The position numbers and the translations under genes were made by a program. A stretch of DNA of 64,000 nucleotides, from IMG/VR virus record IMGVR_UViG_3300049988_000286, positions 32,001-96,000 of that record. One strand, 5' to 3'. The notes under the pieces were generated by a model. The model did no database searches. It had not been told where the DNA came from and saw nothing but the letters and a program-made list of their open reading frames with translations. The DNA is from a virus. Lineage: Duplodnaviria > Caudoviricetes. This document shows positions 3,466 through 32,166 of the stretch, one piece after another (the first letter of the stretch is position 1; each line of letters opens with the position of its first letter).

Positions 3466-3496
3466 CGCTATTGTCGAACTGTGAGACAAGCGGGCG

Positions 3497-3904
3497 ATGA
3501 ACCCTAGTGACGAACGCCCCGCGTGGTGGACCGCCTTCATCGATCGCTTCGAGCGTCTCGACAACTTGATCGAGCAGGGCGTCAGTGATGCCGACGATGA
3601 GCAGCTTGCCATCAACACGTCCTCGCAATTCCATGCGCAGAGGTTCGCGGCCCAATTGATCGACTGTCGAAGGCCGGGCGTCTTCATCGACCTTAACGGT
3701 TGCGTGCGATTGGTCTGGGACGCCGGGGAGGAACAGGTCGCGCTGCTCTTCAATCCAAGGGGGAGGGTAGGGTTTGTCTTCCTGCGCCTCGATGGTGAGG
3801 GGGCGGTGGATGATCTTCGCGGAACAGTCCGCGCATCGCTCATCATGCTGTTGATCGAGCGATTTGAGATCAAGCACGTGATGCTCGACAGGAGTGACCA
3901 ATGA
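3497..3904 (+). CDS. hypothetical protein
   Basis: ORF in co-oriented run. Confidence 0.65.
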   Translation: MNPSDERPAWWTAFIDRFERLDNLIEQGVSDADDEQLAINTSSQFHAQRFAAQLIDCRRPGVFIDLNGCVRLVWDAGEEQVALLFNPRGRVGFVFLRLDGEGAVDDLRGTVRASLIMLLIERFEIKHVMLDRSDQ

Positions 3905-4086
3905 TCGACTTCCATGATTTTGAAAGAGATGGCCAAGGGCGTCCCTACCCCAACGATACACCGGAGCAGTTGCGCGCACGCTCGGAAGACCTTCGCGAGA
4001 GGATCGCGGCCCGGCAGCGTGGCGAGTGGCCCACCTTTCGCCTCCCGACCAAAGGTGATGTGGGCGGCGAGATACCGGGCGGTTGA
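3901..4086 (+). CDS. small hypothetical protein
   Basis: AGGAG SD. Confidence 0.55.
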   Translation: MIDFHDFERDGQGRPYPNDTPEQLRARSEDLRERIAARQRGEWPTFRLPTKGDVGGEIPGG

Positions 4087-8999: not shown

Positions 9000-9097
9000 A
9001 TCGTCTCCAAGGCCTCATCGGTGAGGCAGGGGAGAAGCGCATCTGCGAGTAAGGTGTTCCCGCCTCGGAGTTGTTTTTACCTTGGGGTAACTTGCGT

Positions 9098-9589
9098 TTA
9101 CTGTGTGAGTTCTACCAAGGGATGATCGAACAACATCTCGTAATCGCCGTCATCGCGCAAATCGTAGAACACACTGGCGTCGATCTCGATGCGGACTAGG
9201 AACCGTGAGAGCGGTGCAATCCCAGTATCGGTGAGGACAAATTCCTCCGACTCTTCGCGACGACGCTCTGGATGGGCACCGTGGTGGTGCGACATGAAGT
9301 CGATCGGCACGAGGCGAAAGCGCTGTCGCAGACGCCGCTGATCGAACACGAACACGACATCCTGTCCCCACGTTCGAGCAAAATCTCGTGAGCGCGACAT
9401 GGAGACGCCGGTGACTTGCTGTCCGCCCGTCGTCTTGTCGCCACCGTGGATCATCAGGTTACGACGGGTCTGTGACGTGCGGGCATCTAGACGATCACTC
9501 TCGATGATCCGCAAAGCACTCATCGCATTGGTGCCGTGATAGAGGTAATCGGGGCGAACGCTGGCTTCGAAGAGATCGGACAGGAGCAT
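9098..9589 (-). CDS. ADP-ribosyltransferase-like late protein
   Basis: YLYHGT...GVSMSRS...ESEE pattern; ATG 4 nt after TAAATA. Confidence 0.5.
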   Translation of the reverse strand: MLLSDLFEASVRPDYLYHGTNAMSALRIIESDRLDARTSQTRRNLMIHGGDKTTGGQQVTGVSMSRSRDFARTWGQDVVFVFDQRRLRQRFRLVPIDFMSHHHGAHPERRREESEEFVLTDTGIAPLSRFLVRIEIDASVFYDLRDDGDYEMLFDHPLVELTQ

Positions 9590-9596
9590 GTCCTAT

Positions 9597-10265
9597 TTAG
9601 GACGCTTTCCGATCCACGGTGTAGAAGAGGTGGGTGGCGAACCGGACGATTGGCTTGATGCCGCGTGCCCACGAGGGGTTCACCGCTCGGGTGTGATAGA
9701 AGAGCGCTCCGCGCGTCGTGTCCTTGATGCGGCCGGTGAGCAGCCCCTTGGCGATCTTCTTGGTTTCCAGCCAGCGATCGTAGTCAAGGCTATCATGGGA
9801 GAGTTGTGCGATGTTACGCATCTGGTTGCGGCCGGGATCGCTCTCGTTCCAGCATGAGAAGGCGTAGGGCTTGAGCAACACGGCCGACAGCGTTGAGCCG
9901 AAATTGCGCGATGATGCCAGCCGGTTCAATGCGACATTTCCCACGGCAGTCATTCCCTTCCGACCCGTCGAGCGTCCCTCGCACCACATCGTAAGACGCA
10001 AGAGGCGCTCCTCCGCCGCAGTGTAGCGCGTCTTGAGCGCCACCACCTTGGCCGCGAGGGGCTTCTTGGCGCGCGGCTTTCTCGGCGTCGTCTCCGGGAT
10101 GATCTGGGTGACCGCCCGGCCCAAATACACCGGCACAGGCTTCTCGCGCGGTGCCGCCTCGGTGCGATACGCCATCACGGCGAGACCCAACATATACACG
10201 GCGACGGCGGCTTCGGATTTGCTCAACAACATACGGCCTCTCAATATATCGAACTGCTTAACCAT
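9597..10265 (-). CDS. SleB-family cell wall hydrolase
   Basis: MWCEGRS...AVGNVALNR...GALFYH...W...HLFY. Confidence 0.85.
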   Translation of the reverse strand: MVKQFDILRGRMLLSKSEAAVAVYMLGLAVMAYRTEAAPREKPVPVYLGRAVTQIIPETTPRKPRAKKPLAAKVVALKTRYTAAEERLLRLTMWCEGRSTGRKGMTAVGNVALNRLASSRNFGSTLSAVLLKPYAFSCWNESDPGRNQMRNIAQLSHDSLDYDRWLETKKIAKGLLTGRIKDTTRGALFYHTRAVNPSWARGIKPIVRFATHLFYTVDRKAS

Positions 10266-10318
10266 AGTTCGTTCGGTATTGCAAGCTGTGGTTGATAAAG
10301 GGTTAACCGTGTAAATAG

Positions 10319-10783
10319 GTGATGGTCTTCGACATCATCATGGGCTGGCTGATCGCCGATGCGTTGAGCGGCCTCCTCCACTACGTCCTCGATCATTTCG
10401 GGACCGCCGATACTAACGCGACAGCGAGCATCAGCGACGGTCCCCAGAAGATCAACCAGAGGAGGGCAACCATCCAAACCGCCAGCCATGTGTTGATGTG
10501 GCGAGCAAGGAAACCCCATTGTGTGAAGGCGAGCGGGCGATCGTGATGCTCACGGGCGAACCGTATCGCTCTCTTTCCCACAATCGGAGTTGGCGGCATG
10601 GTCTCCCCCTCTGTGCATTATTGGGCTCATTGCCCCCGCTACGCGCCCCGGTGGGCACGATGGCTCCAACGCTGGGGCGTCTTCCAATCGCCGCGCGGTC
10701 ACGCCCGTCACCATCGCCCTCCCTACACGGCTCATTACTGCGTGCTCACCGACTGGTTGAATCGATTATTGACCCGAAACTAA
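10319..10783 (+). pseudogene. CarF/TMEM189-family lipid desaturase disrupted by an internal 179-bp inversion (10412-10590)
   Basis: plus strand ADALSGLLHYVLDHFG...; minus strand TPIVG...REHHDRP...; plus strand HYWAH...HARHH...HYC; flipping the middle restores one 154-aa ORF. Confidence 0.85.
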
Positions 10784-10802
10784 CCGGGGTCTACACTCCC
10801 GC

Positions 10803-11456
10803 ATGTTTCTCAAATTCCTCGATCTTTCCCTCGCTAGCCGTGTTTTTGTGGTTGGTGATATCCACGGTGAGTTCACCATTTTGGATGACCGCCTCGCCGA
10901 TCTCAAATTTGATTATGAGCGCGATCGACTGTTGAGCGTCGGCGATCTCGTTGATCGCGGACCCGAGTCGGAACGGGCGATCGAATACGCGGTGCAGCCG
11001 TGGTTCGATCATGTTCGTGGCAACCACGAGGAATTGTGCGAAGGCGCGCTGCGCGGCGACATGTGGCAGATGCATCGCAAGAATGGCGGCATGTGGTTCG
11101 ACCTGTTGAGCGATGACGATCGCCGGGAGCATTCCCGCATCCTTAACAATGCTCCCGTGGCTATCGAGGCGCTACTTCCGAGTGGACGGCGGATTGGCGT
11201 TGTTCACGCCGATATTCCGACCAATGACTGGGACGATATGCGCAACCTCGCGCCCGAGATGGAGCGGAGTTGGACGCGCTGGTGCATGTGGAACCGTGAT
11301 CGTCTCTCGAACCCACCCCTAGATGGTATTCGGAATATCGATCACGTCTACTTCGGCCATACCCCGAAGAAGAGCGTCTATCGGGTAGGCAACACATCGT
11401 GGATCGACACGGGCGCTTTCGCTACAAAGAACTTGACGGTGCTCGAAATCAAATAA
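10803..11456 (+). CDS. Ser/Thr protein phosphatase (PrpA/NinI-like metallophosphoesterase)
   Basis: GDIHG, GDLVDRG, RGNHE, FGHTP, IDTG. Confidence 0.9.
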   Translation: MFLKFLDLSLASRVFVVGDIHGEFTILDDRLADLKFDYERDRLLSVGDLVDRGPESERAIEYAVQPWFDHVRGNHEELCEGALRGDMWQMHRKNGGMWFDLLSDDDRREHSRILNNAPVAIEALLPSGRRIGVVHADIPTNDWDDMRNLAPEMERSWTRWCMWNRDRLSNPPLDGIRNIDHVYFGHTPKKSVYRVGNTSWIDTGAFATKNLTVLEIK

Positions 11457-11805
11457 GGGGATCGAACCACAGGACGCCGGGGTCTTGCCGTCTCGGGGAG
11501 GTGATGGTGACCATGAGGGGCAGGTGGCAGCGAAGGCGTAACAGCCAAGCGCTGCTTTCCTCTGTCTGGAACGCGAAGAGCAACGCGCTGCGCTGTTCAA
11601 AACTGAATAGTGCCTCTCCGCAAAACTCGCGGATGAGTTCCGGAAAAGACGAGGCGTTCCAGATGTGTCGCCCCACCCGTTCCAAATAAGTCTCGTCCTC
11701 GGTCGCCTCATAGATGCGAAGGCTCGCCGCAATCGCCTGATCGGTCGAGATGGCTTCAAGAAAGTCGCGATCACGGGCGAGATCGATCTCTACATCTACC
11801 AGCAT
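11449..11805 (-). CDS. hypothetical late protein
   Basis: ATG 4 nt after TAAATA. Confidence 0.6.
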   Translation of the reverse strand: MLVDVEIDLARDRDFLEAISTDQAIAASLRIYEATEDETYLERVGRHIWNASSFPELIREFCGEALFSFEQRSALLFAFQTEESSAWLLRLRCHLPLMVTITSPRRQDPGVLWFDPLI

Positions 11806-11809
11806 GGAG

Positions 11810-11821
11810 TATTTATAAATA
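11810..11821. promoter_or_regulatory. bidirectional T4-late-like promoter
   Basis: palindrome TATTTATAAATA gives TATAAATA on both strands, each 4 nt from an ATG. Confidence 0.75.
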
Positions 11822-11825
11822 CGGG

Positions 11826-12968
11826 ATGCGCATCGTTGAAATCCGCTCAAATCCTGATCTGAATCCCAAGGTGAGCGTGCTCGACATGCTTCGACCATAC
11901 CGGGATCGCGAAGATGCTTTCGTATCTTTCACAAAAATAGAGAAGCTAGGCATAAACCCAAACAGCGCATTCTCGACGCCCGTGGGCATCTACTGCTATC
12001 CCTTGAAGGAGATGTGGTCGATGTATGTCGAGGATCGCGAGCACACGATTGCCCACGATTCGGACGGTATCGGAAAGCTTGTGCCCTTCGCTGGTCAGCA
12101 GCCGTTCGTCACCCTATTCTCCTGCCCGCCGCAGGAGGGTTTGATCAACGACATCGGCGATGTCACACAAGCTGACTTCGATGCCGCCGTGGAAAAAATC
12201 GTCCCAATCTATTCCGACTGGGTGGATCGCACTATGCCGAACTATCGCCAGACGATGCAGAAGCATAGTGATGAATCGATGGACGAGATGTCGAGAAAGG
12301 CAATCACGGGAATCATCAAGGATGGTATGACCTCCTATGGCGCTAATAACAAGACACCCGGTGGACTGCTCTGGTATCTGACTTGGAAACTCTCTAACTC
12401 AATGAGTGGTATCGAGCGCGACCGAGGACTTGCGCGTAATACCGATAATCGCGTGGCGTTTATCTGGAACGCATTGATGCGTCGCATCGGGATCATTGGC
12501 ATCTGTGATCGTAATGGCAAGGGGGTGATCCACGTCGCCGAACCGATGCAAGCCGTGTTCTTCTCGCTGAAGGGACTGCGCGTCATCGCTCGCTTCAACA
12601 ACAAGCACGTGAGCGATGAGCGCAATGCTCATGCCAAAGCAAGAGGTTTGGTGAATACTCAACGTAAACGTAGTCGCGAAGCGGTGTTGTCTTTTGTCGA
12701 AAACAAGCTTTTTGGCCAGCGAATCGATCTTCCCGCAGACGCGAATGTGGTGATCGAACAAGTCCGTGCGTGGCGAGCCGCCAACGGCTTTCCTTCTCAA
12801 CCGGTTACGCGACATCATCTTGTCAGCGAAATCTGCAAACACCTTCCCGGTGTCGAAACCGATACTCTTCTTGTGATGACTGCTGTCCGAGCGATTGATA
12901 ATATCTTTCATGAGGACACAACCGATGGGCAGTTGTCTATCTGGCACGCTATTATTGAAAACGAGTAA
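11826..12968 (+). CDS. hypothetical late protein
   Basis: long ORF; FVSFT...LGINP...TPVGIYCYPL. Confidence 0.8.
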   Translation: MRIVEIRSNPDLNPKVSVLDMLRPYRDREDAFVSFTKIEKLGINPNSAFSTPVGIYCYPLKEMWSMYVEDREHTIAHDSDGIGKLVPFAGQQPFVTLFSCPPQEGLINDIGDVTQADFDAAVEKIVPIYSDWVDRTMPNYRQTMQKHSDESMDEMSRKAITGIIKDGMTSYGANNKTPGGLLWYLTWKLSNSMSGIERDRGLARNTDNRVAFIWNALMRRIGIIGICDRNGKGVIHVAEPMQAVFFSLKGLRVIARFNNKHVSDERNAHAKARGLVNTQRKRSREAVLSFVENKLFGQRIDLPADANVVIEQVRAWRAANGFPSQPVTRHHLVSEICKHLPGVETDTLLVMTAVRAIDNIFHEDTTDGQLSIWHAIIENE

Positions 12969-31713: not shown

Positions 31714-32166
31714 CTAGGTGAGCCAACAGAGGTGAGCGCAAACATCGAGGGCCAATCCCCGGTCGATGAGGCGGCGTGAGACCCACGGTGGTTTAGCCCA
31801 GAACAGGGTCGCATCCTTGGGTTTGATCGCCAAGCACCATTCTGTGAACAGGACTGCATTGTCGATTACCAGTTCATACTGGGCCGCGCCGGAAAAATCA
31901 TCGGTGAGCACTCGATCGGTCCGGAGCTTCTCCGGCACCCCACCCTCATAGACCTCATCGTTGATGATCACGGTGCGCGGCGGGAAGATACTCTTTCCCC
32001 GCCATTGCATCGCTGGCGCGTAATCTCTGGGCGTGTAGGCGGACTCTCGCTCGATATGCCAGCGTATCGCGGCCATCAGATCATTGATCGCGTCCGCTGC
32101 GGGATGTTCCAAAGCGGTGTGGATATCGTCGCACAGCGTAAGATCGATGATCGACAGATCGCTCAC
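31714..32166 (-). CDS. hypothetical protein
   Basis: coupled to the upstream gene. Confidence 0.6.
   Translation of the reverse strand: MSDLSIIDLTLCDDIHTALEHPAADAINDLMAAIRWHIERESAYTPRDYAPAMQWRGKSIFPPRTVIINDEVYEGGVPEKLRTDRVLTDDFSGAAQYELVIDNAVLFTEWCLAIKPKDATLFWAKPPWVSRRLIDRGLALDVCAHLCWLT

Follow-up and report, generated by a model that had tools for sequence, protein, structure and literature searches.

The G segment of phage Mu and the C segment of phage P1, which are inverted by Gin and Cin, respectively, carry inverted repeats of tens of bp, lie adjacent to a serine invertase gene, and provide alternative functional tail-fibre exons. The intragenic invertons of gut bacteria described by Chanin et al. 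have detectable inverted repeats, occur in both orientations per population, and are presumed to be flipped by invertases (10.1101/2023.03.11.532203). Enzyme-independent short flips are mentioned in the same study (10.1101/2023.03.11.532203). With respect to lipid desaturases, eight histidines are common to all CarF homologues, and mutating any one of them abolishes CarF function, whereas a ninth (CarF H113, mouse H131) is required for plasmalogen desaturase activity and is missing in the plant and alphaproteobacterial homologues without this activity (PMC9131029).

The locus described here combines a small DNA inversion with a gene of the latter family. The window (i.e., the whole stretch of DNA analyzed, 64,000 nucleotides) comprises positions 32001–96000 of a 499,572-bp virus record (GC 57%, zero N, CheckV 100% complete), and the source environment of this ~500-kb phage genome is a leaf metagenome. 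At 10319–10783 of the window, three short ORFs lie on the plus, minus, and plus strands, and they encode parts of one protein of the PF10520 family (Lipid_desat; CarF/TMEM189/FAD4). We consider it likely that they record a real, recent, and lineage-specific in-place inversion of 173–179 bp, unprogrammed and mediated by microhomology, that inactivated a PF10520 gene.

The broken gene is divergent to its left neighbor, a SleB-type cell-wall hydrolase (9597–10265, minus; Pfam Hydrolase_2, E 1e-17; PHROG endolysin), whose catalytic domain is preceded by an N-terminal hydrophobic stretch and a basic linker, so that it could be an endolysin of the signal-anchor type. A Metallophos phosphatase (10803–11456) lies downstream, and Pfam returned nothing for the flanking ORFs at 9098–9589 (minus, 163 aa) and 11449–11898 (minus, 149 aa). 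The starts of the divergent endolysin (10265, minus) and desaturase genes are separated by a 55-bp gap, which carries the spaced inverted pair CGAACT-N10-AGTTCG at 10250–10271, with ATAGTTCG at 10264–10271. This pair occurs just twice in the 499,572-bp genome, and the single hexamers CGAACT and AGTTCG occur 191 and 184 times genome-wide (~114 expected). A simple scan found no sigma-70-like promoter for either the desaturase-like gene or the minus-strand piece.

The N-terminal piece (10319–10414, plus) encodes residues 1–31/32 with the HxxxD motif and corresponds to PF10520 profile positions 1–24. The inverted segment (at most 10412–10590, at least 10415–10587, minus) encodes residues 32–91 of the restored protein, including the EHH motif (codons 10543–10548) and, based on hydropathy, most of a ~35-residue hydrophobic hairpin; it is contained in a minus-strand ORF of 68 aa (10393–10599) that matches positions 23–71. 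The C-terminal piece (10588–10783, plus) carries the HYWAH, HARHH, and YC motifs and the stop TAA (10781–10783), and its ORF (10598–10783, 61 aa), which has its own ATG at 10598, matches positions 94–152. Compared to the PF10520 cut-off of 26.4 bits, the scores were 59.6 for the C-terminal piece, 26.4 for the middle piece, and 70.6 for the plus-frame read-through. The family member is therefore recognisable in the window, but as three pieces on two strands instead of one uninterrupted coding sequence. By their matched positions (1–24, 23–71, 94–152), the pieces follow the profile from the N- to the C-terminus, but the middle one is encoded on the opposite strand, and they become colinear only once it is flipped. 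At present, the N-terminal frame runs on into antisense sequence and ends at TGA 10544–10546, producing a 75-aa hybrid ORF. This TGA is the sole plus-frame stop across the inverted part and is antisense to both histidine codons of EHH.

Reverse-complementing 10412–10590 yields a stop-free 465-nt frame (154 codons plus TAA). The sequence-only reading of this locus, which had proposed a plus/minus/plus layout and a single 154-aa ORF with all histidine motifs after flipping, is thus borne out by the ORFs, the profile matches, and the restored frame. Its size of 179 bp needs a small revision: because the segment opens with ACT and closes with AGT, flips of 10412–10590, 10413–10589, 10414–10588, and 10415–10587 all give an identical product sequence, and the inversion, real as it is, spans 173–179 bp and not exactly 179 bp. 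It is exact and in place, with zero bases gained or lost, and since an inversion conserves length, both plus-strand pieces share one frame. ATG 10322 is more likely to be the start codon than GTG 10319, because a close relative found in run X9 (see below) reads GTA at 10319–10321. The right junction CGG|AGT creates GGAG (10586–10589) 8 nt upstream of ATG 10598, and CATG at 10597–10600 reads as ATG on both strands, so that all three fragments have a start codon; both features are probably coincidental.

When compared to other phages, the restored product (residues 2–153) aligned as one colinear segment to 15 loci in phages or prophages, all with the un-inverted arrangement. Identity was 48% (E 6e-46) to three T7-like phage contigs (L005–L007; L005 at 3487–3996), 47% to a P2-like prophage (L004, 5001–5570), and 28–46% to ten IMG/VR contigs and Erythrobacter phage vB_EliS-L02 (L015–L025; L015 at 2337–2873). 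Judged from these alignments, full-length similarity to the relatives is far beyond chance. The two junctions lie within well-aligned columns of a five-way alignment (...T|PIVGK vs. TPVVGP at the left; ALV|GG vs. AIVGG and AVVGG at the right), and the restored product has the shared residue at all positions that do not vary among the four closest relatives, including D25, YC, and eight histidines (H21, H46, H47, H100, H104, H128, H131, and H132). The latter were assigned to the eight histidines of CarF by motif pattern. Hydropathy shows segments at residues 1–20 and 62–96 (35 residues), consistent with three helices. The codon-usage model, which is a weak one (167 long frames, 0.18 bits per codon), gives the desaturase-like gene a score near 0.

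The earlier identification as a CarF/TMEM189 desaturase holds at the level of the family (PF10520), but seemingly not for the specific enzyme. Counted from the conserved Asp (mouse D100 = D25) with the mouse HH-motif numbering, the position of the ninth histidine would be W56 in the restored product; among the relatives, it is His in P0001 and P0003 and non-His in P0002 and P0004. The ninth histidine thus tentatively appears to be missing, and for this reason we use the family name and not that of plasmalogen desaturase. Membership in the family would suggest a role in membrane-lipid desaturation in the infected host.

Relatives of this gene are rare: two were found among 50,697 phage records (one in a 595-kb uncultured phage), a pattern search of IMG/VR returned ten contigs, and there is no PHROG family for the desaturase-like gene. 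Short PF10520 desaturase-like genes (~155–190 aa) nonetheless recur in unrelated phage types, where they adjoin terminase, lysis, or integrase genes. The copy in the P2-like prophage is located between tail-X/gpL and gpR, the place of the lysis genes in P2, and in the T7-like contigs it comes directly after the large terminase, close to a holin. In a Mu-like contig, the gene sits between gp27 and terminase, and the copy of Erythrobacter phage vB_EliS-L02, annotated as hypothetical, is found between PhoH and portal. Several other searches returned nothing: megablast of 9000–12500 had no match in the 50,697 phage records, the middle piece found nothing in the IMG/VR locus search or in a homologous-protein search at near length, neither IMG/VR nor the JGI metagenomes matched a degenerate DNA pattern of the un-inverted left junction (G-T-A-D-T-P-I-V-G-K), and the F-A-R-E-H-H-D-R-P pattern had no IMG/VR match. 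Seven metagenome loci that were picked up by the latter pattern (L008–L014) were not relatives according to tblastn. One further candidate (L003), from the IMG/VR locus search with the C-terminal piece, was discarded because its 24-residue match at 38% was too weak.

A much closer comparison is provided by X9, a run of another study with a different organism label, whose contigs are 96–98% identical to the window (depth 3–6x). A 643-nt contig of this run matches 9954–10413 on one strand and 10417–10587 on the other, i.e., with an opposite-strands joint at 10413|10587 and a shorter side of 171 nt. In gene orientation, its left junction reads ...GAT AC. CCG ATT GTG..., which is the intact form, and its 11 unaligned letters (...GCG CTA ATT GGC GG) give the intact right junction, A-L-I-G-G, in agreement with AIVGG and AVVGG of the relatives. 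Read in this way, the ~97% identical relative in X9 has an un-inverted, open gene, as have the 15 more distant loci. The X9 contigs end and restart within ~11 nt of the right inversion boundary, with the following contig beginning at 10590, a break that could reflect either low coverage (3–6x) or local heterogeneity. Contigs from X2 and X3 end before both junctions, and orientation is not readable from them.

The differences between these genomes indicate how long the gene has been broken. Each of the ten listed differences from X9 and X2 within the gene affects a third codon position and is synonymous in the restored frame (up to three more X9 differences near the piece ends are counted in addition to those listed). 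Four of the ten sit in the flipped part, where only minus-strand reading makes them synonymous. The right junction reads TTAGT in the window and CTAAT in X9 (2/5 bases); one of these changes is silent at a Leu codon, and the other exchanges Val and Ile, which is conservative and the sole replacement seen. Given that all listed changes are synonymous, the gene was under purifying selection until recently. Based on a rough estimate, ~10 synonymous changes over ~120 synonymous sites correspond to a dS of ~0.08, and neutral evolution of the gene over the window's whole branch would be expected to yield ~14 replacement changes. At most one was seen, so the break would take up less than about one third of that branch, and its actual age is probably far lower.

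The boundaries of the segment point to microhomology. On the left, CCGCCGATACT (10404–10414) ends in ACT, an exact inverted match to 10588–10590, and on the right, AGTTGGCGG (10588–10596) has the reverse complement CCGCCAACT. The match consists of three exact bases plus a gapped CCGCC nearby, and a repeat search found no longer inverted repeat at the boundaries. The ends thus form an imperfect repeat, as had been described from the sequence, and a weak one: the pairing of CCGCCGATACT with CCGCCAACT is equalled by 4.8% of position pairs drawn at random with the same spacing, and an exact 3-bp inverted match by 1.8%. An imperfect hairpin of ~80 nt is present inside the segment (10512–10591; DNA fold −17.9 kcal/mol, z −2.3, 5/200 shuffles equal), with its base adjoining the right breakpoint, and the ancestral orientation would put this base at the left breakpoint. 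Such a hairpin is a possible replication obstacle, and its predicted position at a breakpoint would fit an origin by template switching at a stalled fork, although this is only suggestive. A 19-nt pair (10391–10409 and 10435–10453), which the ancestral orientation would turn into a direct repeat, is asymmetric to the breakpoints and was taken as a coincidence.

The exact flip, the inverted microhomology on either side of the segment, and the retention of the ancestral orientation by close relatives are what a microhomology-mediated in-place inversion would leave behind. The mechanism has to be read from this scar: the event most likely took place at the minimal inverted microhomology of ACT/AGT, which has CCGCC/GGCGG a short distance further out. 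It could have been either illegitimate recombination between the short repeats or a stalled replication fork that switched template twice, and the adjacent hairpin may have aided it. The result is a small phage-borne lipid-desaturase-like gene that is split into three pieces and thereby probably inactivated. Of the three options offered by the sequence-only reading (a very recent microhomology inversion, a reversible switch, or an assembly or library chimera), the first is favoured by the inverted form in an independent assembly, the intact form in a near-identical relative, and the synonymous nature of the listed differences; the other two are disfavoured.

If the segment were a reversible intragenic inverton, it would act as an ON/OFF switch, flipped at the short repeats by a recombinase of the host or by one of the phage that belongs to an unrecognised family. 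Both orientations do occur in nature, in phages that are ~97% identical, and an exact flip that keeps its short inverted repeats could in principle flip back. The gene is without any decay, and ongoing purifying selection would also be expected if it were toggled. The GGAG located 8 nt before ATG 10598 and the presence of an ATG for each piece resemble 'premature stop' intragenic invertons (10.1101/2023.03.11.532203), and the X9 contig breaks at the right boundary. However, with three exact bases plus a gapped CCGCC, equalled by 4.8% of random pairs, and no longer inverted repeat, the boundaries carry no flanking inverted repeats that a recombinase would be expected to recognise. The earlier reading had suggested looking for an invertase elsewhere in the genome, and PF00239 (Resolvase), PF00589 (Phage_integrase), PF01548 (IS110-type DEDD), and PF07508 (large serine Recombinase) had no match in the whole 499,572-bp record, whereas control genomes do match these four profiles. 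The phage genome therefore has no invertase or recombinase gene of these four families. Furthermore, the contigs of each sample give one orientation only (X1, inverted; X9, intact), with the proviso that Logan contigs drop rare variants and minority intact molecules in X1, or inverted ones in X9, would stay hidden. None of the 15 relatives is inverted. On balance, we consider a reversible switch improbable, and the same doubt applies to its specific form, a membrane-lipid desaturase turned ON and OFF next to the lysis gene with almost no repeat, no phage invertase, and both states in the population. We infer a fixed inverted form that does not switch back and forth.

A second possibility is an artefact of assembly or library construction, with an intact gene in the real phage. 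The exact sequence was found in one run only (X1, a leaf metagenome run and the probable source sample), and the intact form is present in a close relative, and both points speak for an artefact. When X1 was assembled separately (Logan, a 31-mer graph assembly), the inverted form was rebuilt in a 25,506-nt contig (mean depth 47) that spans both inverted junctions and has 0 differences over 1,501 nt, and no contig with the alternative junctions was found in this assembly. X1 is possibly the record's own sample, and in that case the second assembly is independent in method but not in data. The inverted form is not peculiar to one assembler. A k-mer graph cannot invert a segment across repeats of 3–5 bp, chimeric reads are individual events that would not form the consensus at ~47x, and the genome record is without N. 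A chimera, which had been left as an option, is thus disfavoured by the second assembly at this depth and is, in our assessment, very improbable. A run search with the 60-nt junction-only sequence listed X1 as the sole run, on the basis of two sampled words, too few to count as evidence.

Finally, the new arrangement might itself be functional through its 75-aa N-terminal hybrid, 68-aa minus-strand, and 61-aa C-terminal products, each of which has a start codon (the last with the junction-made GGAG before ATG 10598), but this is very unlikely given that the eight histidines required in the family are divided among three fragments on two strands, that mutating any of them abolishes CarF function (PMC9131029), that the minus-strand piece has no promoter-like site, and that the arrangement is conserved nowhere else among the 15 relatives.

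Taken at face value, a single phage lineage has acquired a single mutation, a new instance of a kind already known, in a new phage member of a known family. It provides a tidy and datable case in which a huge phage lost a gene through a small microhomology inversion, and it would mean that the desaturase-like gene is dispensable in this lineage. There is also a consequence for annotation. Over this recognisable gene, gene callers will place either two or three small ORFs without meaning or a spurious one of 145 aa, and pseudogene detectors that look for frameshifts and stop codons are blind to small in-place inversions. The 145-aa ORF (10498–10935, plus) lies in another frame and extends across the broken gene into the beginning of the phosphatase gene. 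ORF logic as a means of detecting small inversions is too permissive at 57% GC. The more interesting lead is the desaturase-like gene, which is rare yet repeated across unrelated phage types and has no PHROG family; judged by their family, the short phage PF10520 proteins could remodel host membrane lipids.

Compared to the systems described at the outset, the locus shares with the Mu G and P1 C segments an inversion of phage DNA that alters the protein made, but the long repeats, the serine invertase, and the alternative tail-fibre exons of those segments are all absent here. The invertons of Chanin et al. are similar in that the inversion lies wholly within a coding sequence, introduces a premature stop, and results in several ORFs. 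Unlike them, this locus has a repeat at chance level, no phage invertase was found, and the contigs give one orientation per sample. With respect to the protein, the restored product resembles CarF, TMEM189 (PEDS1), and FAD4 in its profile match, its nature as a membrane protein, and its eight histidines arranged as HxxxD, HH, HxxxH, and HxxHH. Proteins of this type are about 270–280 aa in length, whereas the restored product is much shorter (153–154 aa), and its hydropathy profile suggests one N-terminal and one ~35-residue hydrophobic segment rather than an evident four-helix pattern, the topology of PEDS1-type plasmanylethanolamine desaturases; its gene also differs from theirs in being phage-borne and broken. 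The inversion itself resembles template-switch or short-inverted-repeat inversions, such as quasipalindrome mutations in bacteria and the enzyme-independent short flips, with which it shares an exact in-place flip, inverted microhomology of a few bases, and hairpin-prone sequence beside the breakpoint, but its 173–179 bp exceed the length of classical quasipalindrome corrections.
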